A model generated the notes under the pieces. The model saw only the letters and a list, made by a program, of their open reading frames with translations. It searched no databases and was not told the origin of the DNA. A DNA stretch of 48,832 bases, filler included, from Bipalium vagum (taxonomy: Eukaryota), in the NCBI GenBank assembly GCA_037834085.1. It is 3 parts of 3 records of this genome, joined end to end, with 100 filler letters (N's around TTAATTAATTAA, not from the genome) between each part and the next. Parts side by side here need not be neighbours in the genome. Positions count along the whole stretch, not along the records: positions 32,191 to 48,832 come from JBBMKC010100775.1; 2 more parts are not named here. The stretch is one strand, 5' to 3'. Both the position numbers and the translations under genes were made by a program. Shown one piece after another: positions 31,130-48,832 of the stretch. Each line of letters begins with the position of its first letter. Position 1 is the stretch's first letter.

Positions 31130-32086
31130 TTTAAAATGTAAATACTTATTTCTTATATCCTTTCTTTTTTTCTTACCTTTCCCCACCTTTTAGGTAACGA
31201 ATGAATTCCATGAAAGAAAATCTCTGACTCCTTTGATGAAATCCAGTTTTGGAGATCTTCAAGGGAACTGAATCGCTCCCCGGAAAGTGCTGATTTCAAA
31301 GAGCAGAACAAATGGTGATCCGAATAGGTGAATAGAGGTGGTTAGGTAAGACTTCTCACTTCGTACCTTCTAAGTAATTATTTACAACTGAATTAACGTG
31401 TGGTCTTTCTTTATCATGTAAAATTATCTTTTCGTGTCTATTCATCCCTTCCGGTCGTTTTTCATTCAAAGCTTGCTTCAAACTAATTAATTGTGATCGA
31501 TAAAGTTCACCAGTTTGTGTTTGAGAAGATTTTAAAAACTCATAATAGATCACTCCTTTCTGATCCCACCAGATACACAACATAACTTTCAAACCGTGAA
31601 CATTTTGTTTCGGTGTTGATCCAATGCCACTTGGCAAGCTGCTTTCCGTTTTGGATTGTCATAACGAATCCATTTTTCGTTTCCTATGATAATTCGATGC
31701 AAAATCCCTTTCCTTTTTTGTTTCTGAAGAAGGACATCACAAATTGTTTTAGCCGTTCAATGCATCCTTCTGTCAATTCATGCGGCATCCATTTTCCTAA
31801 TTTTCGAATAATTACTAAAGCTGCCAGACGTTTTGAAATGCATTGTTGAGTCAAATTTAATGCAGCTTCCCATTTTATGTCTTCCCATGCTTCTTGTCGT
31901 TCGTATTATATTGGTCATTTCTAAAACGGTAAAAACAATATTTACATGTGGTCAAAGAAGGAATAGAAGGAAACCTCCATAGGTATCTCGAAGCAAGCGG
32001 TACGTTTCCGCCTCAGTTTTCTTGGCAATAAAGTAATGTAGAATTACTTCCCGCAAATTTCGTTTATTTGGGATGAATATTGACAT
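31130..32086 (-). mobile_element. Mos1-like mariner transposase pseudogene abutting the gap
   Basis: MSIFIPNKRNLREVILHYFIAKKTEAETYRLL from ATG 32086; WMPHELTE; RKGFCIELS; STPKQNVHGLKVMLCIWWDQKGVIYYEFL...KIILHDKERPH. Confidence 0.88.
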
Positions 32087-32190: not shown

Positions 32191-33735
32191 AAAGTCTCAA
32201 ATCTCAATCCAACATCAATTAATGACCTAAAAATGAAAATTAATCAAGTGTGGAGAAATGATATCTCACTTGACTATTGCAAACATTTATTTGAGTCAGA
32301 ACCTAATCATATTGCGACAGTCATTAAAGCTAAAGTACAAAATATAACATATTTTTTTATAATCTTCATTCATGATAAATGTTGTACATAATATTATATT
32401 AATATATACATTTTTTGGAATTAATAAGTACAATAGGAATTTACATTTTTTTGAAGTTGTTCTCAGACTTTTGACGGGGACTGTATGAGTATTTAATTTT
32501 AAAATCATAATTTAAATTATAATAATATAAATAAAGTCAATCCCTGAAAATAAAAATTTAACAATTTCTTCATTTTAAATATTATAAGTATAATAATATT
32601 ACAGTTTAAATCAATAATTAAATAATTACATTTTATAATTATGAATTAAAAATATGAAAATTCAAGAACGCGACAATTTTTCAGAAACTTCCTTGTAGAA
32701 TATTTAGAAAATAATGATATTGAAATAAAAATGAAAATGAAAGAAAACAATACAAATATAATAATAATATAAAATAAAATTCAAAAAAGAAATAATAAAA
32801 CAATTAAAAAAAAGTAAATTAAAATTATATTTTGATAAATTTTTGAGAAGTCAAATTTGAAATGTCTTGATATTTATAACAAAGAAGGATAAAACAAATA
32901 ATAATGAAATAAAATAAACACGTAAATAAATTTTTTTGAATTTAATTATTGACTTTTAAAGTATTTATAAATATTTAATCAATAATAATCAAATCATCAA
33001 TTATTTTTATTATTATCATTTAAATTCTCAAATTTTAGTCAAAAACTAATATTACTATACTAAAAAATCTTTAGCCACAATCCAGTTGTCACTGATCTTC
33101 AATGGGTTTGATGGCAGCCTGAAAATTACCATTTCACGATCTATTCAACTATAGCCTACCTTTAAGGTCCTCTTAAATATTAAACTTCACCAATCGACGT
33201 CTATCAGTTCATTCTTCAATAATTCACTTATCAAAGACGTTAAAATAATATTTTTTTGAGTTTCACCAAAAGCTTAAAATAACAAATAGATTTCCTCCTT
33301 AAAAAGCTGTTTCATATGAAAATAATATTATCGAATTAATCAATGAAATTTGTTAATTCAAAATAAGAAAATCATTAGAAAGGTGTTCAAAATTAAATAC
33401 ATACAAAGAGAACTAGTACGTAACAAGAAAATTAATTAATAAAATCAATACAATTTATTTTAAACACAAAAATTCGAAAAATGTTCAAAGAAATTAAACT
33501 ATCACAACATTTTATTTTAGTTTCATTATTTCTTTTAAAATTTATTGATTTCATTTAATAATTGATTTAACTTCTTATTTTATTTTCTCATTAAAATTTT
33601 AAAAATTTAATTTTAAGAGAGATTTATTAATTTTAAATATTTTTATTTAAGCATTTAATGATCCTAAAATTAAGAATTCACGAAGTATGATAATAATTCC
33701 TTATAATAATGATAGAAATAAAACAGTAGTATCAC

Positions 33736-36700
33736 CTTATAGCAGCCCGCACCAATAACACTTGGAACCATGCTCTTGCCACATGAGTGGACAAGCCATT
33801 TGCGACTCAAGGGGAAACATGACGACCTAGGTCCGAACTCCTGGAGAAGGAAATTGTTGTGGCTATCTGTAAAACATGTGTAAAAAAGACCGTTGAAAAA
33901 ATATTGCAAAAACCCACCCTGATTGTTCCTGGTCTCGGAACACTGAGTGGTTCGAGAAACGTGATCTCCTTTGTACCAGTTGAATTCCTAATTTTATAAA
34001 AAGACATGTCATAAATGCAAAGTTTGATGAAGATGGCGTATCTATTTTTTTCTTTCTTTTCGCTAGATGAATGTTTTTCATGTTTTTTTTCAAACTAAAA
34101 ACCTTTACCAAGACGAAAAGGAAGAGAAAATGTACCCACAAGTAATGCAGTCCGTGTCTCACTTGTGGATAAGGACAGTAATTGGCGACGGTGCTCTTTC
34201 CGCCAAAAAAAGCCGATTGGAAAATCTGATCATCAGTTAAATATCGATACTGAGGTTCCAAGGGGTAAGGGTGCTTCTCCAAGTTACAATAGGCGTAAGC
34301 ATGTTTGTCTGCACTACAAAACCCGGCTAATTCTTTGTCGGCACTGTTAATGACAGTGCAGAATGGCTCAACACTCAATCCTCTACATGAAATGAAAACC
34401 ATGGTAACGTTTGTGTTCAGTGTCAATTATTATATTTGTTGTTATTATTAATAGTAACATAAAAATACAAACTATCAAGCAAAATAATAATAATTACCGG
34501 GTGCGGAATAAAAATCGCCACTTTTTGCAAAACAAATTTCAACCAAGAATTACGAAGAAATATTTTTATTTATATAAAATAGAACAAATATCATTATAAA
34601 TAATGAAGATAAATATATACAGATTTTGTTTATCCAATTAATCCACCATTATTTTGAATAATTTTTTCAATTCTAGTTCGGATTCCTTGGCATGTCGCCA
34701 CAATGGATTCTTCGGATAATTCCTCCCAGACTTTGATTAAACTGACCTTGAGAGCATATATGTTGACATGTGACTTTAGACTGAAAATTCACGCAGATAG
34801 AAAAATCCAAGGGATTGATATCTGGAGAATTAGGAGACCACATATCCTTTTGCGAGAAATTCGGCATATTTTTCTCATGCCAGTTCTGAGTCTTTTTGGA
34901 TGTATGACATGGGCATCCATATTGGGTGAACACAGCTGGATAGTCAGAATGGTAGTTTGAGTCAATCCAAGGTTTGACATCATTCTCAAGTATTTGAATA
35001 TAAGCATCTGCATTCATTTTTTCGTTTTCTACATGAAAGCAGGTGAAATTTTTTTGCCATCTGATGCAACCAGACTTGGCTTGGATATTTTGTTTTAAAT
35101 ATGTTTGATATTATCAAAAATTTGCTGTGTTCCACCTTTTACAATATATCTATCATTCCTGCTGTTTGAGGTAGGGTCAACAGTGAATATCTTCTCATCA
35201 GAAAACAAGATAATGTGCGTACCTTTCTTCAAAATTGAAAGTATACATTTACATCTTGGTTTCTTTATTCATTGTTGTTTGTAGAGGCCGTGAAGTTCTA
35301 TTAAGAGATCTAACACCAATATCATATTTTATGAGGTTTCCATAGATTTTTCGACCATGTCATTGGCCATCTGTCTCATGGACCTGACAGGATTTTTCTT
35401 TATTCTGACTTTCACTGTATTGATGGTAAAGGGTTTACGCTTGGATCTAGGTCTTCCACTACCAGGCTGTCGTTCTAGGGTTCCTTTTACCTTGAAACAT
35501 ACTTGGACACGAAAAACTGTTGCTCGGTGTACTCCAAGACCTTGTGAAATTTTATCTGATCTTTTTCCAGCGTTCAAAAGATCAATAATCCTTTGATTTT
35601 TCCTCAATATCATTTTACTGTATAAATAAAAATCAGTTTTTATTTTACTGATGAGTACTAGACAAAAAATACTTCTAAATATATATGACTAACAAAGGAC
35701 AAAATTATTGGTGTCAAAACGAAATGATATTTAACAATCGCAATTTGTATTCTGCACCCAGTATAAGTATTGATAAAAATAAATAATTACCAGTTTAAAA
35801 ATTCGCACATGAAATCAAAGGAGGTACTTTATTTTTTAGCATTTAAAGAAGAAAGAAATTGATTATGATTTTTTTTTCTAGAAAAAGAATTTTCTTTTTC
35901 GTTACCGTTTAAATGATACAGAAATCTTCTGATGATCAGCGTCTGCAATGAGCGTGAATTGAATTTTCGAAGAAAGCTTAAGTTTATTGAAGATGATCGC
36001 CGTTTCAAAAGACTTTCCATGATAAATGATAAAGAAAGAGGTCGAAAAAGTGAAGTTTGTGTTCCAAAGCTACCAAGTAGTGAGTTCTCATTGTAAGCTT
36101 TTTACTGGGGAACAGAGATGGATATTTCAATACCACAAAGAAACCAGATGATAAGCAAATGAATGGTGGATAACAAATAAACGGAAACGGAAAAGGGTTT
36201 TTCAAAGATCCCGTGATAATTGTCATTCGGTTGTCGTGATATAGTTCACCATAAATTATTAGGCATAGAAATAAATTCCCATCATTTTTTTAACGAAAAA
36301 TAAGTTTATTTAAAAGTAACAAAACATTTATTTCAGTCAAAATATTTGCCGTTGGTAGCTACAACTTTTGACCATCTTTCGGGCAAATAAGTGGAAATGA
36401 GATGGCGTTGGGTCTGTTGAGCACGATGGATGAGATAGAAACTCTCAACTAAGTCCTTTTGATGTTTCTTTAACTGGTTTTGCAAAATGTGGTCTGATAT
36501 TATGGTGTTGCAAAGTGATCTGATCATGTCTTAAGCCATTGTGGTCTCTTGGTACTTACTGATCGACTTAAATCGAGTAATTTCTGCTGATATCGATCAC
36601 CAGTTACAGTTTCGGATAGTTTGAGAATAATGGTACAATACTCTCATTAGGTCCAGATACAAAGTATTATTTAACTTCTGTTCGTCCATCTTTTTACTGT

Positions 36701-39700
36701 CAATGTTGATGGTTGTTTGGGCATTGTCATCACCGGTTATAATTCGATCTAAAATGAGTGCCTTGTAAGTAATACTTCGCAAACAGTTTTGCAATTTTCT
36801 TGTTGCCTTTCGGTCAAATCATATTGTATCCATTTTCCATACTTTTGGATCATTCTCAATGCGTGCATCCATTGACCTTTCAACTCTCGATGCCTGTGCT
36901 ATTTCTTCAAGCGTTCGGCATGAGTCTCCTTTGATAATTCCTCGTAAATCACATCTTCAAACTATTTTGTCTTCGACACTAAAGTCACCTATCTTAAATC
37001 GTCGATACCATTCTCGGCATGTTGCCGTAAACTTTTGTTATTAATCAGTATCGGCTGTTGATTTCTTTAAATTTTAGCAAAATAATAATGATTCCAGCAA
37101 ATACTGTTTATTTGGTCTATGATTTTGTGTATTCGCTAAAATAAATAAGATATTTAATCAATTAAAACAAATACTAACTATTGATATTTAATAATTATAT
37201 TACAATATCACTTTTTAGTTTTATTTTCAATGACAAATAAACAACATTTATAATAATAATTAATCTATAAAAAAATAAGAGAACTAATATCCATACCTAA
37301 TATTATTTTCATTATTGTTATTTATTACTTTCTTTTCCACTCACCAATAAGGCTAATAATAGAAAAAATCAATCATAAAAGATCAAACCTAGCTGTGCGA
37401 TGTTGGATGTATTCATAGCAGCTCATTTCGAGGAAGTCGCATCCTAAGTTTTTACCCCAAGACATGCAATCAGCTAAATCGTAATTGGGAATGTACCAAC
37501 TAAATCGGAAAATTAAATGAAAAAATGACATAGTTAAAAGAAAAAATTGTGACAAATTTAACAAGATAAAACAATTACCCCGTGTCGTACATGAGGGCTA
37601 AGGTGATCCGCGACACTCGAGCTTCTTGGGTAAAGGTTGCCGTCATTATATCATTCTAATTAACAAAATTATATTTTCAAAAATAGAAAAATCGATAAAA
37701 ATTTTTCCAGTAATGATAATTATTTCATTCAATTTTCAATCGATTCCAAGATGGATTTTTTATAAAATCAATCAACACAATAAAAATCGAAACACAATTC
37801 TGTTTTGTTAAATTTTGTTTCGAAAAACGCGATGAGGAAAAAATTGTAAAAATTATACCCGGTAAAATTGCTTAATCAATAATGTCCCGTTTTGCCTTTG
37901 AAATTTATCTCAAAAGTATTACCAATTATGTTTCGTGAATTGAATTGAATCCTTATTAAAGTAGGAATATATTTTAATTCCGATTATTATCGATTAATAA
38001 ATGAATTTGTTTATTTTTCATAAGAAATAAAACGATAATGATTATAAACGGAATTCTTTTAAAAATTAAAAAATCAATAACGAAAATTAAAACCAATTAT
38101 TAAAACACCTCCAGAATCCGTTTCTCCCAATGAGTCAATGAAACGCCCAATCCGCCCTGATCTTCCAGCTCGACACCCATCAATGTGGAACAGTTGAAAT
38201 ATTCACGTGCTTCCTTGACAACGGTTGGCAGTACAACAAGAGTAACATTTTTCAGAAAGAATCCAGCAGCACTTTGCCATCGACGAATCGTAGACCGCGT
38301 TACTCGATTGCTCCACATGTAAATGTTGCTTCGATCGTTCAGGAATCCCAGATCTGGACGACCAGTCAAACTGTTCCGGGGTGTGTACGGAACGCCATTG
38401 CTGTCTCGATAGAATGCGAATTGGGTGACGGCAAATCCCAGAGCATGCAGCAATTCATGTTTAGCAATGAAAAGCGATTGAGACAAATGACCGAAATCAC
38501 TGCTCAATCGACCCGGACAAAAATTTATCGATCCGGCAATCGGTCTAGAAAATCGAAATTTATTTACAAGTATATTGGCTCATTTCAAATAGTAATTTTA
38601 ATGATTTTATTTATACTTTTATTATTATTATTATTTATTATTACTATTATTATATTAATAAATTTTTATTATTTTTTATGTATATTTTTAATATTTAAAT
38701 TCGTGTTATAATTGATTTTTAAAAATATTTAATATAACATTATGTAGGCAAAAAAATCCAGAAAAAACCTGTCTAAACGTGCTTCTGATTGACATGAAGA
38801 AGCGTATGCAAGCACAGAAGAATCTTCACACTTCCGAGTTTGGCGGGACTCAATATACAAAATAAAGTCTGTATTGTTCACACCTCCACCCTCGTAACCG
38901 ACCCTTACCAATTGTGAGTCCAAAATTCGTCGACATCCCTGTACCAGAAAAGATAAAACTGTGTCATGACACAATCCACACTCCCACAAACCAAATCCAG
39001 AAGATATAAATAAAAAATTGAAAAAACAATATTGTTCGATAAATAAGAATATGGGATAGTTAAATAGTAAATAAAAATTCTTGTCTTACAATAAAATCGA
39101 TTTATGATAAAAAATAAATATAACTTATTAAATACCATCAGATGATTGATTGGAACCTCCACATCGCCACACATCGTTTTCGGCGCACATCCGTCCACAC
39201 AATAATAGGAAAACACACCGCTTATTTTGACAAATGCCAACCGATTTGTGACGCATTTCCTGAAGAGAATGAAATAATAATAATAATAATATTCAGTCAA
39301 TCATTGTTTATTTTTTTATCGCAATAAATATAATAATTATTATCAACAATTTATAATAAAAAAACGATTATCATTATAATTAATATTCTTTTATAATTTT
39401 TAAAAACTTTTCTATAATAATTGTAATAAAATAATTATTTTATTATTATTAATTTCCAAAAGAATTGTTCCTCAAGTTATTTATTACTTAGAATTATATA
39501 TAATTAATGTTATTAAATAAAATAAAATTTATGTATTTAATCTTAGTGACATTCACTTTTAAACGATTTTTAAAAATTTTATCAAACCAAATATTTTTAA
39601 AAAAAACGAGTTTCGATTATTGAACAATTTTGAATGCCGATGGTTCTATATCGATTTCAACTTAAGTTTAACGAATAAAAATATTATCATGCTATCATAA

Positions 39701-41284
39701 CAATAAATAAACCGCCTTTTAACCAAGTCTAAACATTATCGAACATTTGAAAATTGATTAGAAAAGATGCTTGATTAATTAATTATATCTGATCGGATTT
39801 TCGAACGAAAAATATCAAAAAATAATCATGAGATCAACTGAGAGATCAGTTTCAAATCAAATTTACGTTGATTCAAAATCGATTTGCATTAGTAAATTGA
39901 CAGAAATTTAAAGCTTACTTTGATTCCGAAGAATTAGAGATTATTGTGAAAGAACTATTGGTATTTAGATCTTTTTTAACGTGACAAATTGCAATTAAAA
40001 TCAATTTGAATGAGAAAACTGTTCCCAATATTGAAAAATTATCTGACGAGGTTCAAAAAAATGAGCTATCTCTTGTTCGTTCTGGTAACCTCAATTACAA
40101 AGACTCATTTCACAATCAATGAAAACTTTAATGAAATAACTAGCGTGAAAATTGTTTTACAATCAATAGTAATAACATCATTGAGCAAAGAGATGATGAG
40201 AAACAGCTTTAAGCCATTTGAACAAGGCTAAATTGAATAAGAAGATCGATATTTGGCCAGATCACAAAAATCAGAGATCATGCCCACTTTATTAAATAAA
40301 TTATCTCGACGACACGAATACAACATGGACCAAACAGATGAAGTACCAATTATAAGGTTAATTCTTTCCTTTTAAAACCACAAAGTTATACTAAGAAAAC
40401 GGTCTTATTTTCCAAATTGTAGAACGTATGTAATCGAAAAGGAAAAAAAATTCATTTTTAATAAAGTTCACTTAGAATTTGTTAAAAATGCATCGCGTTT
40501 AATCACAATGATCCCGATACTCACCCAAATTTAATTTTACCAGAAATTTCATAATGTTAAAGATTGTTAAAGCTTCTCAAATTTAAGTGAAAAATGAAAG
40601 AATGTTAACCACCAATCGATAATTATTGAATTATTTTACGAATTTATTTTACAGAACATGCAAAATCAATCAATAACAAGATGGTTACTGTTGAAGCTTG
40701 ATGTTTTCGTAAGAATTGCGGACGTATAGCGCACTCTGCAAATACTGAATCGCAGGTTGAATGATGTAAGCCTGTGAAAATTAAATGCATTATAATGATG
40801 AAACAAAATTTTATCGGCAAAACGATGAAAGCCTGATTAAAGGAAAATGCATTTAATATTAATAAAAGTGAATCTTAATAGTCCATAAATCAAAAAAAAT
40901 AGTTAATTTTTTAAAAAACGCCAACTTGCATTTCATTTATTTCACCTTTGTTATTATAAAAATAATCAACAAAATAAAACACCTTGTACAAATAAGAATG
41001 TTGTTGGACATTGAAAGAAGTGTCATAATGAGGATATATATTCAAATTAGATAAATGCCGTTTTTTACGCCTGGATTTAGTAGCATCCTGTGCTACACTT
41101 ATTCCACTCTGCCATGAAAAAGCAGTATAAATTAGAAAAGCAATAACATTTCGTTTACCTTATCATGTGCTATATCCAAGGAACATTTATTATAAATTGG
41201 TTCGAAAGGATAACTACAGATCAAATAAATACCATGCATGCATAGTATTATAATAAATAATAAAATACATGAAGTTATACTGAT
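33736..41284 (-). CDS. LMLN: Leishmanolysin-like peptidase / invadolysin (peptidase M8), multi-exon, C-terminal exons not found
   Basis: Phase-consistent GT-AG exons: 41159-41284, 40983-41108, 40689-40771, 39136-39259, 38769-38938, 38109-38544, 37579-37655, 37389-37499, 34163-34382, 33918-33987, 33736-33866. Contains a hydrophobic signal-like N-terminus, TDFILYI, LAYASSCQSEARLDRPIAGSINFCP, the zinc motif KHELLHALGF, AREYFNC..LMGVELEDQGG..LTHWEKRILE, Met-turn NDIMT, SRITLALMYDTGWY, WGKNLGCDF, ANYCPY and GAGCYK, all characteristic of M8/LMLN. Confidence 0.93.
34497..35761 (-). mobile_element. maT (DD37D, Bmmar1-like) transposon, both ends present but decayed, in an LMLN intron
   Basis: TA-flanked TIRs CCGGGTGCGGAATAAAAATCGC and CTGGGTGCAGAATACAAATTGC. 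HTH ORF 35329-35613 (ERQPGSGRPRS), ILFSDEKIFTVD, and FTQ[Y]GCPCH...WSPNSPDINPLD with exactly 37 residues between the second (mutated D to Y) and third catalytic positions. Confidence 0.88.
36259..37300 (-). mobile_element. Decayed mariner element with both TIRs, in an LMLN intron
   Basis: TA-flanked TTAGGCATAGAAATAAATTCCCATC and TTAGGTATGGATATTAGTTCTCTTA. Remnants TCREWYRRFKIGDFSVED, ILDRIITGDD, LPERWSKVVATNGKYFD. Confidence 0.8.
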
Positions 41285-42279
41285 CTAAAATGAAAAAAAT
41301 TCTTAAATAAGAAATCAAATTAGTTAAAGTAATATAATTATAAAATTAAATATAAAAAATTAATGATTTGAAAATTATAATTATGGGGAATAAATATAAA
41401 CAAAAATGTCTTAAATAAAATAGTTAAGCAAAAAGATATTAAAATAAATAATCTGTCTTGTAGTTCCACTACTATCCACAATCTCTGAACAAGATTCTGA
41501 TAATTAAACTAATATTTTTAAAAGAATTTATCATAATTAGGCAATGAAACAGAAATAAAGAACATTGATATTTTGTCAATATGAAGAATCAAACTCAAAG
41601 TTATGAATTCTAATCAAATAATTTTGGGTCAATATTATTTAGAACAACTAATCATATCTTTGCTAGCTAAGTATTATTCTCTCCAAAAACTTTTTTACAA
41701 TAAAGAATAACAATGAGAAATAAAATTAGAAAAGAAACGATTTTAGAATGTAGTAAAATGATTATTAATGAAAGTAATAGAAAATTAAACAGAAAAATAG
41801 TAAAAGGTATTCCATAAAAATAGATAATAATGAAAAATATTAAAAGCAGAGGAGTAGTATGACCAGACTTTGCAAACAGGACCCCAAAGCATTTTTTTAA
41901 TATTTGTTTACTTTTTTATTTTTCATATTTTTTATAAAAAATAATGTGAAGAAAAAATAACAAAAATATAACAAGTCAAATTTTCTATTAATAAATGAAT
42001 TTTTTGGGCTTGCCAAAGGCACAAACCGTGATGTTTGCAATAATAATAATAATAACTTATTTTTCGCTGCTCTTGTTAGCTCTATTGTCTGTCTAAACAC
42101 TAAAGATTTAACCTTTGTACCAAGTGAAAGGACATCGAAAAAGCCTCGTGAGACGAATTCTAGATATAAAATAATATAAATAGTTATTGATTTATATACA
42201 AGATATGATGTTCCTTAATTTAATTTTAATTTAATTTTTTTTTAAATTTAATTTTAATTTTTAATTTTAATTTTTCTAA

Positions 42280-42715
42280 AATAACATTCTAATTCTTCTA
42301 AACTTTCCTCAAAATCTTTCCCAGTAAAAGTTAATATAAAACGTATAAAGATACTTATCAACAGTATTCCAAATCTGTTTCAATTTGAAAATCAAATTTA
42401 TTGTACTCTTTAACATGTTTTTCTAAATCTTCAAGTGGACGTAAACCATAATAACCAAAATACAATTTTTTATAATATCCAATCCAATTAATTCCTTTTT
42501 GATTAAAATTTTGATAGTTAATAATTAAAGGAATTTCAGGTTTATTCTTTTTTTCTGTTACTGCATCTTTCATTAAAACTTTTAGAGGAAATTCCAAACC
42601 TTCAGACATATCAAATAAATCAAAATGTGTTGTTGAGTTTATTCCATATTTACATAAAAATTCTAAAAGAAAAGGAGTTTTATTTTTTTTAAATCGAGAA
42701 GAATTCTTACTAATT
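42280..42715 (-). pseudogene. Polinton/Maverick (adintovirus-type) adenain-like cysteine protease pseudogene
   Basis: STTHFDLFDMSEGLEFPLKVLMKD...IINYQNFNQKGINWIGYYKKLYFGYYGLRP...YNKFDFQ....EYC*. This matches the peptidase C5-like pattern (IIN...GxHW...YFDSxGxxP...YN...Q...CG), with single-base lesions: His to Asn (AAT), Asp to Gly, and CG to C-stop (TGT TGA). Confidence 0.75.
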
Positions 42716-42792
42716 TTTTTTAAAAATTTGGGAAAAAAATATTTTTGGGAAAATTTTATGTTTTGAAAACTTTTTGAGTTGGGAAAATATTT

Positions 42793-43325
42793 TTAATCTT
42801 TCTCATAAGGATCGAAATATAAACCTTTTCCTTATTTAACAATTTTAATTTTATTTTTGATAAGTTTACCTATTAATTCCTTTAACTCTTTTCTTTCAGA
42901 TTTCTGTAAACTTTTATATTCAGAACTATTTAAAATTTTTTCTCTTAATCCTTTTCCAAAATAAGGATCGAAAAAAAGTCCAGCTCCGGTTGTGGAAGCT
43001 TCGATCGGTTTTCGTTTATCGATTTCTGTTTGTAATTTCTTTTTTTCTAATTCAATCTTTTCCTTCTCTGCATTATTTTTTGCTGCTTCTTAAAGTTTTG
43101 TACAGCTGTTGCTACTCCACCTGAAACTCCACCAGCTACCAGAATTGGAATTAATGAAAGAACGCCACCTGATTTTTTTTCTTTGGTTTGATTATTAACT
43201 TGTTATTTAATTTTATTAATTATTTTCTTGGAGAAGTAATATTTTTCTCAATTAAAAGTTATGTATTTTGGTTTTCCTACTTCTATAATATTTTGTAAAT
43301 TTTGTTCTGTTATTTCGTTTTTCAT
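42793..43325 (-). pseudogene. Polinton/adintovirus core protein pseudogene resembling adenovirus protein X (pX/mu)
   Basis: ATG 43325 ... KEKKSGGVLSLIPILVAGGVSGGVATAVQ (frameshift) EAAKNNAEKEKIELEKKKLQ...TTGAGLFFDPYFGKGL...*GKGLYFDPYEKD*. A basic-GG-hydrophobic LIP segment plus repeated GxGLY/FxxPY motifs, immediately upstream of and co-oriented with the protease. Confidence 0.65.
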
Positions 43326-43499
43326 TTTTTACGAAAAAATTGAAAAAATAAGGATAATTTTAAGAATGATCATATGCATTTTTTTAAATTTATTTTTTGA
43401 TATAATTATTAATAATCATAAACAATATTCTTTATAATTTTTAATATAATTTTGTGACAATTATATTGATTGTTTTCAATTCAGTTGCTATTAATCTTA

Positions 43500-46400
43500 G
43501 GAGATACCTTATTCAGAAAACCAGTTATAATAAAATCTTGAAAAAATTTGTGAAAATATAATAGGACCTATTGAACAAGTTAATCGATTTTCTTTGGAAC
43601 CTTCATTATTGTACAAAAAACAAATAGATAACCTTCTTCCAACAATAGAAATCGCCGACATTCCAACAGCATTAAAAACATTGGAGAATACAAAAGATAT
43701 CATTGAAGAAATGATATCTCTTTTTAATGAAGAAGGAATACAACGAAAATATGATGCACTTTTTTCTGAAGTCGCAAAAAAGGAAAACTAAGAAGATCTA
43801 TTAAAGAAGAAAGGTAAAAAATTTAGATCATTGGTAGAGAAAGCACTGTCACATGATCTGACCGTTTGATCTAAGAAAAGCTTGAAACACTGTTCTTATT
43901 ACAATGCATTGGAGATGAGGAGGTCACACGAGAGGTTAGAATGCGAAGGCTGAAGAAAGGAAGCGAAATTAAAGATTTGATGAGATTGATGACCGACATC
44001 AAAGAAAAAGAAAAGAAAAAGTTGGTGAATGCAGTAAGGAGTTACAGAGATATTGTTACAAGGTAGCACAAAATCATGACACCAGAATACCCTCATTTAA
44101 AGGAAGAAAAATAGCAAGAAAAAATATTAAATGTTATGGATGTAATAAGGATGATGGATGTTTAGCTTGTAGCTGTACGGCAAGAAAACAAATTCAATTC
44201 TGAACCTGTTCGAGTCAGGGTCACATTAGCAGGAATTGTCCAAAAAAGAAACCTCAAGTATGCTTCGGATTTCAGAGAGAGGTTCATATTAGGAGAAATT
44301 GTCCAAATATAAAGTGTAAGCGGTGCAACAGGAAAGGGCATAGTGAAAGGGAATATTATACGAACCTTCACGGTGGTAGGATCTTTCTAGCACAGAGAAT
44401 CAGAGGTCCAGAAAACGTTTATAGAAGGAATAATTTAAATGTATTAGAAGAGGAAGTTGACTGGTCGAATACAAAGAAGAGCAAAGATGGGGATTTAGTA
44501 GGAGCCTTATATTAAACGTCGACAACGATGATTCCCAAAGGGGAGCCCGGTGCAAAGAAGAAGAGTGGGCAAGGGTGTGGAAATTCATGAAGAAAGACTT
44601 TAGTGATGTGGAGAATGATGAAGAGGTGGGAGCTGTGATTGAAGGAGGGGATTTCTTTATAACAGACAGAGTGATGAACGGAAGACCAAGTATGGCGGTA
44701 GAGATTCAAGGACAAAGACTCGAATGCTAATTAGATACGTGAGGTGGGGTTAGTGTAATGAGTAGGAAAATTTTGAATAAGTTTATAGACGTGGAAGTAG
44801 TTAGAAGTAATGGCAGATTAAGGTATGCGAACAATAGCCAATTGGAAATAGTAGGAAAATGCTCAATTTTGGTGAGAGTAGGAAATGAGTCAAAACTGGT
44901 GAACTTTCAGTAGTAGAGCAAGTCACACTGGATTTAATCGGCGGAATAAATCTCCAGAAGGTATTCAGATTCAGGTTGGTTAAAGAGAATGCCGGGCAGA
45001 TCAAAACTGTTGAAATGGAAAGAGAAGAATCATATATGTGTAATATTGAAGGGAAGTTTGGTAATGAAGTTAAGGAAGGGGAGCGTTTTAAGAGAACAGT
45101 AGAGCTAACAGGCTTGACAAACAACAAGCAGCTGGTGCATATCGGGACAACAGGAGAACCGATTAATCTTAAGTCGTTTATTAAAGGAGCAATGGTCTAT
45201 CTGGACGACATATTAGTGTTTACGGGGACTGAAAGTGAGCATTATAAGGGTCTGAACGAAAAGTGTCATTTGCTGAAAGAGGAAATAAAGTTCTTGGGTC
45301 ATGTGGTGAATAGAAAGGGGGTAAAGACAGATCCTTCAAAGTTGGAGGCGACTAAAAATTTCGAAAAGCCAAAATGTGTAAAAGGATTGAGAAGCTTTTT
45401 ATGGATCTGTAACTATTAGAAGATTTATAAAAGAATACTCAAAAAGATCTAGGCCCTTGGAGAGAGCGTGTGGAAAGAGTGAGAAAAATTTAATATGAAC
45501 ACTTGAGATAGAAGAAGCGTTCAAGGAGATGAAAAAACTATTAACATCAAGTCCCTTATTTGTTTCCCCGATATTAAGAAGGAAATTATTCTAGATACAC
45601 ATGAGAATTTTGATTCAATAGGAGCAGTTCTGTCTCAACTGGACGAAAATAGAAAGTAACGAGTGATATCATATGGCTCTCACGCCATGAGCAGCCATGA
45701 AATTGGGTACTGTAATACTCGAAAGGAATTGCTGTCCATTTATTACTTTTGCAATCACTTTCAGCATTATTTATACGATAGGAGGTTCAGACTGAGAACG
45801 GACCATAAAGCAATCACCTTCATGATGAGTACGAAGAAGCCGATCACGTCGCAATTCCAAACGTGGATTAATTACTTGAACAGTCTTGACATTAAGTTCG
45901 AATACAGGAAGGTTTCGATACATATAAACGTAGATTTGTTATCTAGTCCGAGATGCGAAACATGTAGTCACTGCCAATTAGCGCATGATAAGGCGAAGAA
46001 GGGAAAGATGAAAGTCAAGATGTTGGATGTAATATAAAGATGCAGAAAAGAACTTGATATGGCATGTTCATAGATTGTTGGCCCATGTAGGTACTGAGAA
46101 GGTTGTGAAATATATGAAGGGAAAACATGATATAAATGGTTTGTGGAGTAAAATACGGAGGGTATTGTCAGGATGCGAAGCATGTCAGAATCATAAAGTG
46201 GTTACATCAGCGACAAAAGAGGCCACAGTGAAATTGGAAGCATCCGAAATCCTTGAGAACATTTATGTTGATATTTGCGGTCCGTTAACGGAAACCAGGA
46301 GGAAGAAAAAGTACATCCAAGGCACAATAGATCAGTACAGCAAATATATCTGTTTAACTGCGGTAGCAAGGCAGGACAAAGAGAAAATTATAGAGGTGAT

Positions 46401-46860
46401 AAAAAAGTTTGGTTTTCAAGTTTGGTAGTCCCAAGACTATCAATGTGGATTGCGCAAAAACATTTGATTCAAAGTAGATGGCAGAGTTTGCGAAAGTATA
46501 AATTCAGAACTGCGGTTCTCAAGCCCTTACCACCATAACACTAATGGCCAGATTGAACGAAAATTTAGAACTATTAAGGAGAGACTGAATGCAGCTAGAG
46601 AAACAAGGGAAGGAAGGATTGGGAGGAACTATTGCCAGAGGACAAGTTCTCATTGAATGCAACAACGCAGAAGACGACAGGAAGAAGCCCCGCAGAAATT
46701 ATTTTTGGCTGGCGCATAGACCGAGATAGATGGTATCTGTCGAGAGAGTAGGTGGATAGAACGGAAGTGGAATCGATGACGAAAAGGAATTTTGAAGATG
46801 GTGACGAAGTCCTGGTCAAAGTGGAAACGAGGAACAAGAACCAGCAAAGATACGAAAATA
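43500..46860 (+). mobile_element. Decayed Ty3/Gypsy LTR retrotransposon internal region (gag-PR-RT-RNaseH-INT); LTRs not identified
   Basis: Gag zinc knuckles 44130-44360, protease remnant C*LDT*GGVSVM ~44725, RT YLDDILVF and IKFLGHVV, RNase H IGAVLSQ...YCNTRKELLSI...FRLRTDHKAI, integrase HHCC (HRLLAH...CEAC), ENIYVDICGPL and SSPYHHNTNGQIER. The RT-RH-INT order indicates Gypsy. Visibly more G-rich than the flanks. Confidence 0.92.
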
Positions 46861-47284
46861 TATTAATATTCACATTCTCATATTTCTATAAATTCTAATT
46901 TTAAATTTATATCCTTAAAATATTTTTTGTTTTCTGTTGAGTTAGCCAAGGACACATTCCTGTTAACCCTTGTAAAGTTAAAGACCGAAAAGGGTCAGGG
47001 GTAAAATAATAAAAACATTTTTAGTGAAAATTTTTCCCATAAATGAAAAAAAGGTCCAAATAGATATAATCAATGTAAAAATCAGTTATAATTACTCATT
47101 GTGAATTATCTTGTACTAAAATGTCATTTTTAATTTATTATAAAATAGGTGTTAACAATGTAAATCAATGATTCTAAAAACAGACAAATGTTATAAAGAA
47201 CCGTTTTATAATAAAATTCCCAATTGGTTGAAATCAAAAGAAAAAATACACACAAAGATCTATATTCTTTCATAAATATAAGCA

Positions 47285-48757
47285 TCAAAGACCTTTTCGG
47301 AATTTTCCATACTCTGAAATGTGCAATAACATGGCAACCTGAAATCTCAATTTGCTGATGTCGGACAATCGAGAAGTGATGTAATTTTTATTGATGATGT
47401 ACATTCCGAAAATTGGGAAACTGGGAACAACGGGCACCTGAAATAAATAATCAAAATCAAAAGGAAACATTACGAAAATGAAAAAATAAACAAAAACCGT
47501 TAAGAAATCGTCATCGAAGTAATGAAAGGTTTTTGTTTCTGGATTGAACACAATTCTTTCCAGGAAAATATCTAATCGGCCTTTGAAAAGACTTTGCTGA
47601 TCAGTTTGGTTACCATTCTTTGAAAGATCCAAAAAATGAGGCCATCCAACAAGTATCTCGTTGACCAAGTTAGAATCCTTATCAATTACCATCAGAGGGT
47701 TGGATTCATCTTTCTGGAACTGTAATAATATTATTGATAATTACGATTCCATGAAAATAATGATTAAAATATTTTTCTACTTAATTTTAATACTAATTTT
47801 ATTGATAATCAGTCAATAATCTAATGTCAATTCAAATAATGTTAATTTATAATTATGGCAGGTAATCGTGAAAATTGATTCATAATCGCTTAGAAAAAAC
47901 AGAAGATTCAAATCCCATTATGTTTTAAGTGGTCAGAAAATCAGTTTTATAAATCTTCAAATTTTAATCCTCTATAAGAAAATATAAAGATAATGGATGA
48001 AAATAAAATGCAATCTGTTGGCATGTCAAAATATTTCCTCTTGTAAAAAATACTAATTTAACAAAGAAATTAATAAAAAATACTATTAAATATTTGTAAA
48101 AAACTATTGATCACTCTGAGACTAACTAATTTGTAAATTGAAACAAAAATATTGCCAAAAGTTGGCCGAAAATTAAAAAAAAACTTTTTCCTACAGGCAA
48201 ATAGCCGAGAGTTAACGAAAGTACTGACCTGTTCGGAATTGTGCTGTTGACGAAGAACCTTTTGAAAAAATGGCACTAAAGCTTTTTTGCATTCCTCTAT
48301 TTGAAAAATTATTTGTCCGGTAAAATTAATCCTGGTAGCACTATTCAAATGCGGACTTTGATGACTGAAGAAGGAGCAAATGAGCATAACATTGAAGAAA
48401 TTCCCTCGACTGTCGCATCTTTCGAATATAATTTCTTTGTTATCTTTGATGCTTTGTGGAGAAAAATAAGTGTCTTTGAGGATCTCGGAATCCCACGTTT
48501 CCAAAAAAATCGGAATGGCAGCTAAGCGGACAAAGGTCACCTGTCGACACTCGAAATTTTTTCTGAATGCCGTTACTGTTGATTTGTTCTTTGGAAAGTG
48601 GAACAAATTGTTGATTTCTACTTTAAGTATAACTTTCAGGCCCATAATTCGCACTCTGGCTGCTTGAGACGAAAGACGTTCCAACAAAATTACAGGAAAA
48701 GCCGATAGTATATCTATACATGTTTTATTCCGATGGTCATCTTGAATTGGAGGTTGC
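47285..48757 (-). CDS. 3' exons of an unidentified multi-exon protein-coding gene continuing beyond the window
   Basis: Exons 48229-48757 (donor GTCAGT), 47498-47719 (acceptor attacag) and probable terminal exon 47285-47437 (acceptor tttcag), phase-consistent. Long open frames and less AT-rich than the introns. No family recognised with confidence. Confidence 0.65.
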
Positions 48758-48832
48758 CTTTATTATGGAAAAATTTTTAATGTTTATTAAATCAATAAAT
48801 TAAAAAATAAAACCATTCAAATTATAATAAAC

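Follow-up and report, generated by a model that had tools for sequence, protein, structure and literature searches.

A pair of decayed reading frames near an invadolysin gene in the genome of Bipalium vagum raises the question of whether they are the fossil of an endogenous double-stranded DNA virus, as a first-pass annotation had claimed, and, if so, of what kind of virus and in what state. The stretch analyzed, here called the window, comprises 48,832 nucleotides joined from three records of assembly GCA_037834085.1 (440.8 Mb in 272,664 contigs); positions 32191-48832, which hold the frames, are the 16,642-base contig JBBMKC010100775.1. We conclude, with a probability of about 0.93, that the stretch is a broken and rearranged fragment of a Polinton/Maverick (adintovirus), likely functionless today.

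Layout of the relic

Two broken genes lie adjacent and in the same orientation on the minus strand, as had been annotated. The first, read from an ATG at 43325 and containing the peptide KKSGGVLSLIPILVAGGVSGGVATAV, extends to ~42796, and the second follows from ~42684 to 42278. They did not arise by chance, since the 1.1 kb relic matches other contigs with E-values down to 1e-206 (75% identity in the best match); it is a repeat, with at least 68 matches to other contigs when 40 of 1,826 candidates were scored. Three details of the annotation needed revision. The frames had been called largely invisible to an ORF scan, yet much of their length falls within stop-to-stop frames of 144 and 85 codons. 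The extent, placed at 42280-43325, was too narrow, as the Polinton-derived block runs from ~42215 to 43817. Finally, polymerase, integrase, ATPase, and capsid genes were said not to be visible, which has to be corrected for integrase and protein-primed polymerase (pPolB), both of which have left scraps. The features of the locus are:

41850-42002, plus strand: short repeat, possibly Polinton non-coding DNA (a weak assignment); of two paralog loci read, one has it ~0.5 kb upstream from PLA2
42104-42223, plus strand: Polinton rve integrase scrap (5' part, 120 bp), 81-83% identical to the integrase regions of loci L094-L096; tblastn E = 1e-4 to 7e-4
42278-42684, minus strand: decayed gene for an adenain-type (clan CE, C5-like) cysteine protease, with the His and Asp columns substituted and stops after the Cys
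42796-43325, minus strand: decayed Polinton core-like gene encoding GG with a hydrophobic pX-like segment, a coiled coil, and recurring GxG-L-Y/F-x-x-P-Y motifs; interrupted by stops and by a single frame change
43326-43817, no strand assigned: more Polinton-derived DNA, comprising the spacer that precedes the core-like gene as well as a repeat in which an antisense frame is open
43534-43791, plus strand: the antisense open frame in that repeat, which in paralogs (L099, L100, L101) sits between integrase and the core-like gene
43825-46856, plus strand: truncated Ty3/gypsy gag-pol remnant, separate from the Polinton (zf-CCHC, RT_RNaseH, Integrase_H2C2, weak RVT_1), with high-copy ends
46855-46926, minus strand: pPolB scrap (72 bp), 83-90% identical to the pPolB regions of five loci; tblastn E = 0.008

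The integrase scrap runs against the orientation PLA2-INT-core-PRO that is usual in the family, and the pPolB scrap lies beyond the gypsy remnant as seen from the relic. Neither a TIR nor a target-site duplication was seen at the window locus, as expected for an internal fragment.

Other mobile DNA surrounds the relic. The gypsy remnant, which belongs to a very high-copy family, occupies the space between the Polinton core gene and the pPolB scrap, and no LTR pair for it was found among the repeats listed at the locus. A short interspersed repeat of unassigned kind (41990-42055) lies between two small Polinton-related scraps. Tc1/mariner-type transposase remnants, recognized by a weak DDE_3, Transposase_1 (E = 2.6e-23), and HTH, are present at 24444-24791 (+), 31356-31658 (-), and 34673-35688 (-), two of the three within the invadolysin span.

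The neighboring host gene is real: Peptidase_M8 matches at 38100-38579 (E = 5e-18) and 33863-34426 on the minus strand belong to an intron-rich invadolysin gene (33863-41283, minus strand) that lies below 41.3 kb. Two further 5' exons, which by eye and from resemblance we take to be invadolysin-like, were not confirmed by Pfam, and the relic is within ~1 kb of the most 5' one. The relic had been placed just upstream of this gene; as the first coding exon was not located, it could lie either there or inside the first intron.

The protease and the core-like gene

The protease gene contains five stops from the catalytic Cys onward, and the window protease alone returned nothing relevant from Pfam or the PDB, with no Peptidase_C5 match at E ≤ 1. 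A DUF61 match of the window proteins fell below the cut-off and was dismissed, and a narrow profile of in-genome proteases gave 0 matches in the PDB. Searched against 1.84 billion proteins, a profile of 15 close relatives retrieved 1,904 at E ≤ 0.001. When 72 database proteases (7 from one relative search and 65 of the 150 listed from the 15-relative profile search) were scanned, 16 scored Peptidase_C5 at E ≤ 0.01, six clearly above the curated cut-off and one at it. The 107-sequence family profile matched adenovirus protease 1avp in the PDB at E = 1.6e-8, followed by ASFV S273R at 1.8e-7. The predicted structure of an unaltered paralog frame (pLDDT 68.8, pTM 0.71) found clan CE proteases only in its top 27 structure-match rows; against adenovirus protease the model aligned over 112 residues with Z 7.4 and rmsd 4.2, tied with other CE proteases, and Foldseek returned no PDB match to it at E ≤ 0.001. 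These profiles and this model identify the second gene as coding for an adenain-type protease of clan CE.

The recognizable His/Asp/Gln/Cys scaffold that had been attributed to the window copy is a property of its family. In the 29 best-scoring paralog loci, a sample that leans to well-preserved copies, 27 retain His, 26 each retain Asp, Gln, and Cys, and 18 retain all four. The window protease itself retains Gln and Cys and has other residues in the His and Asp columns.

The core-like gene is interrupted by two stops within its first 78 codons and by a frame change near 43090, after which ~99 codons continue in another frame with one more stop near the end. Both pieces belong to one gene, because the unbroken database relatives P0012 (186 aa) and P0013 (168 aa) span both. 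The encoded architecture consists of a small N-terminal domain, GG with a hydrophobic segment (shorter in the window gene than in relatives), a coiled coil, and repeated GxG motifs; a single-sequence model of P0012 had a pTM of 0.27 and was not used for a fold search. The first-pass annotation had called this a pX-like core protein. The window protein alone has no Adeno_PX match in Pfam at E ≤ 1, and its relatives score 15-18 bits against Adeno_PX (PF05829), with 18.4 for the best full protein and a Pfam cut-off of 25; one paralog stretch reaches 25.2 bits. The pX-like segment matches the PDB pX chain 9lr9_E weakly (E = 1.4), and an Atlas cluster with 19% Adeno_PX members gives a score of 0.91. 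We read the gene as coding for a Polinton core-like protein, whose homology to adenovirus pX appears weak and borderline.

Relative to adenain (peptidase C5) and pX/mu, the two proteins share the fold class, the His/Asp(Glu)/Gln/Cys layout, and a GG followed by a hydrophobic LIP segment. They differ in that the protease is shorter (~135-150 aa vs 204 for adenain) and the core-like protein (~170-190 aa) has a coiled coil and a series of GxG motifs, unlike adenovirus pX. Adenoviruses are also not known to carry an integrase. The database protein P0044, in which protease and core-like protein are fused in one chain, supports the two as a functional pair. Other natural fusions among database proteins combine PLA2 with protease, and protease with integrase and a chromodomain (the fusion set being P0044, P0141, and P0154). 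The adenovirus cleavage consensus with its P4 residue, (M/I/L)xGG or (M/I/L)xGxG, is present in four more distant relatives (P0013, P0163, P0164, and P0044); because neither window piece contains it, nor does P0012, we can only infer that the protease cuts the core-like protein.

Linkage to the Polinton gene set

Open frames beside the paralogs encode the remainder of a Polinton. They include rve integrase (E = 1.5e-15, in L024), Phospholip_A2_4 (E = 1.6e-5), DNA_pol_B_2 (E = 2.4e-7; above cut-off in L025 and L035), Pox_A32 (E = 4e-5; above cut-off in two of four frames scanned), and a double jelly-roll capsid (DJR-like_dom E = 1.1e-18; Atlas 0.97). We read 31 protease-bearing contigs, 17 chosen from the relic search and 14 long ones from the protease search, in stretches of at most 10-20 kb of the fragmented assembly. 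Integrase accompanies the protease on 17 of them (all matches at least 46% identical to Polinton integrase), and the core-like gene likewise on 17. PLA2 is present on 15, a candidate for the minor capsid on 9, pPolB on 7, the major capsid on 5, and the ATPase on 2. Within stretches of this length, five of the six core genes occur together on two contigs and all six on none.

The usual order is PLA2-integrase, core, protease, three ORFs of no assigned function, candidate minor capsid, ATPase, and major capsid. PLA2 and the start of integrase share one open frame in three copies (L027, L020, and L087). The candidate minor capsid ORF, which precedes the ATPase and capsid genes on 9 of the 31 contigs and which from resemblance and position may be a single jelly-roll protein, had no match in Pfam or the PDB. 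Many copies are deleted or shuffled, with pPolB directly before the protease, the core gene missing, or inversions. The window relic is identified as a Polinton/Maverick (adintovirus) because its paralogs adjoin PLA2-integrase, pPolB, A32 ATPase, and double jelly-roll capsid genes; both the adenain profile and this linkage thus bear out the viral origin that had been proposed.

Two kinds of polymerase-like frame, one of PF03175 type and one of endonuclease VII zinc-finger type, adjoin protease or capsid copies (L025, L110, L084, and L220), hinting at polymerase exchange or nested insertions. Alpha and Beta adintoviruses are told apart by the class of pPolB, with an N-terminal OTU domain, and by PLA2X as against GasderminX/Cupiennin; here PLA2 is present, not joined to pX, and both polymerase-like kinds occur beside protease copies.

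The Polinton core gene set is defined in the available parts of two papers (PMC8502044; PMC8097293), and the gene set observed here matches the Polinton/adintovirus definition as given in the available parts of five sources (PMC8502044; PMC8097293; PMC3671162; PMC6431247; 10.64898/2026.10.13.758929). Like Polintons/Mavericks (Polintoviricetes; adintoviruses, Starrett et al., PMC8502044), the family has an adenain-type protease, rve integrase, pPolB, A32/FtsK-like ATPase, and double jelly-roll capsid; like adintoviruses as described in the parts of that paper at hand, it has a PLA2 domain, a pX-like segment, and degraded copies in an animal germ line. There, PLA2X joins PLA2 and pX, whereas here PLA2 is fused with the start of integrase and the pX-like segment lies in a separate protein (PMC8502044, same parts). 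Distant metagenome contigs, too, have PLA2 immediately ahead of integrase and protease, so this arrangement is not special to B. vagum.

Spread of the family and alternative readings

First-look searches gave 1,816 protease and 2,031 capsid candidates, counts of gene remnants that fragmentation of the assembly may inflate; with 150 candidates scored per search, there were at least 153 protease and at least 152 capsid matches. The genome holds well over a hundred remnants of the family, and likely more than a thousand. Among 80 systematically sampled contigs (104,501 bases), five contigs and 1.6% of bases (bootstrap 0.3-3.6%; coding matches alone) match 24 family proteins, and reversed controls gave 0 matches. 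Hundreds of defective copies with fragmented genes also characterize the Mavericks of axolotl, tuatara, and pike in the available parts of PMC8097293, where the vertebrate maxima are 287, 280, and 172 elements, respectively; those were counted differently, and our ~1,800-2,000 first-look candidates per gene (150 scored per search) are not directly comparable with them. No larger animal Polinton expansion appeared, by title or start of abstract, among the literature matches listed, which fall short of a full survey.

Protease evolution retains the mark of function. The median dN/dS is 0.32 over 406 paralog pairs and 0.25 over the 29 pairs of window copy and paralog, and the nearest sampled paralog of the window protease is at dS 0.31. 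In 30 copies including that of the window, private changes are even across codon positions (73/75/73) and shared changes are skewed to the third (32/15/51). Such a pattern would result from the spread of working elements under purifying selection, with each inserted copy decaying neutrally afterwards. Since the shared changes are synonymous-skewed and dN/dS is 0.32, a working protease was needed in the lineages giving rise to the copies.

We propose that the active ancestor had the order PLA2-integrase, core-like gene, protease, three ORFs, a likely minor capsid, ATPase, and major capsid, with pPolB nearby, an arrangement pieced together from the overlapping neighborhoods of separate copies. 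The adenovirus protease acts in virion maturation, and by analogy the protease here likely matured the virion by cutting the neighboring core-like precursor at GG/GxG sites. Such a cut would free the hydrophobic segment, which together with the PLA2 domain may have helped the particle cross membranes. These steps draw on adenovirus and adomavirus biology; the adomavirus core protein appears cleaved in virions, according to the available part of 10.1101/341131. The element probably entered the germ line through its own integrase. The window copy would then have lost most of its length, become inverted against the integrase scrap, been interrupted or abutted by the gypsy element, and decayed neutrally; it is likely dead.

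An alternative, which we judge unlikely while giving it real weight, is that the family spread mainly within the genome, as a transposon or as defective elements mobilized in trans, with no virions and with protease and core genes as passengers. Heavy deletion and shuffling of the copies (pPolB before protease, missing core genes, inversions) and the lack of a complete element on any stretch read would fit such a history. Against it, the synonymous skew of shared protease changes and the dN/dS of 0.32 indicate that a working protease was required, and capsid remnants are as many as protease remnants (2,031 vs 1,816 candidates). The same selection logic has been applied to vertebrate Mavericks, in the available parts of PMC8097293.

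Co-option of the window copy by the host, for example as regulatory DNA for invadolysin, is suggested by its position within ~1 kb of the presumed 5' exon and seems very improbable; neither frame is intact, two of the catalytic columns hold other residues, and with Polinton remnants making up 1.6% of sampled bases a chance neighborhood is plausible. That the locus is a contaminating free virus or an assembly chimera, as the very fragmented assembly (272,664 contigs) and the patchwork of repeats at the locus might suggest, is scarcely credible, because the same 16.6 kb contig carries an intron-containing host gene, stops and frame breaks exclude a live virus, and contigs from the one public run containing the locus, which may be the assembly's own source and hence not independent, cover 40000-42209, 43062-43265, and 43236-43854 at single-copy depth and with no differing letters. 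No RNA run was listed among the public runs containing the locus.

The relic is a real, correctly recognized, ordinary, and likely dead Polinton fragment. Decayed Polintons occur widely in animal germ lines and have a well-characterized gene set, so that the relic adds one host and one lineage. Its value is as a fossil record: the numerous copies, whose maturation protease was clearly under selection, favor spread by way of particles. Their unusual abundance and mosaicism make this genome well suited to the question of why Polintons multiply in certain hosts.

An undescribed family had been suggested for the relic, which holds solely in the ordinary sense that no named relative was found. In a tree made by a quick method from 149 columns, with four in-genome proteases and relatives from ENA/Logan, the four form a clade (SH-aLRT 97) within a clade of 10 (SH-aLRT 100) that includes unnamed ENA/Logan proteins at 52-68% identity. 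The nearest protein relatives are unnamed ENA/Logan proteins at 58-70%, followed by others at 42% or less. IMG/VR yielded protease matches of 25-31%, mostly on giant-virus or unrelated contigs, and no capsid relative. None of four family motifs occurs in the portion of the Starrett supplement covered; the rest of that supplement may contain relatives. Host-specific new families are the rule for Polintons, and the lineage is therefore a further member of the ordinary kind.

One subfamily (L237-L266, e.g., L239, L252, and L258) carries a divergent second protease directly before the normal one, an arrangement absent from the window copy. The tandem pair was found in 20 of 30 loci read, several others being cut by contig ends. 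Of the 29 copies that cover the nucleophile column of the second protease, 25 read Ser there; His is kept in 23 of 26, Asp in 26 of 28, and Gln in 28 of 30. The 25 Ser copies are nearly uniform, with dS 0.10 and dN/dS 1.03 (column bootstrap 0.71-1.60), beside adjacent normal proteases of the same 10 loci that are diverse (dS 0.52, dN/dS 0.31), which suggests recombination between elements. Maintenance of the Ser-bearing protease by selection is unsupported at a dN/dS of 1.03, although selection at an earlier stage would be masked if the copies had spread recently in a star-like manner. Most simply, a module was acquired from another lineage, lost its activity once, and was then propagated by recombination, though a functional pseudo-protease is conceivable. 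Among the literature matches listed for an inactivated or serine Polinton protease, none was a Polinton paper. In a bolder picture, this poorly sampled animal lineage would record one of the largest Polinton bursts seen in an animal, with perhaps a thousand remnants or more, driven by a virion-forming lineage that recombines and lacks named relatives. A second adenain paralog, with a Ser-His-Asp set on the clan CE fold, would have swept across diverse element backbones because it had a function, either as a pseudo-protease regulator or as a serine-nucleophile adenain; we regard this picture as a long shot.

The assembly also contains a second, distant Polinton group (L036, L037, L039, and L040), in which the major capsid gene is directly followed by adenain and the frames are long and open. 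Its GC content is 39-41% (L036 and L037) vs 21-24% for the family of the relic, and it may have invaded more recently or may stem from another organism. The Peptidase_C5 matches of a direct family search of the genome largely belong to this group. The host itself is a divergent, poorly sampled animal, because the best matches of its TENT5/FAM46 gene (L021:326-1396), out of 5.8 billion proteins, reach just 38-47% identity and are spread over arthropods, molluscs, and others.
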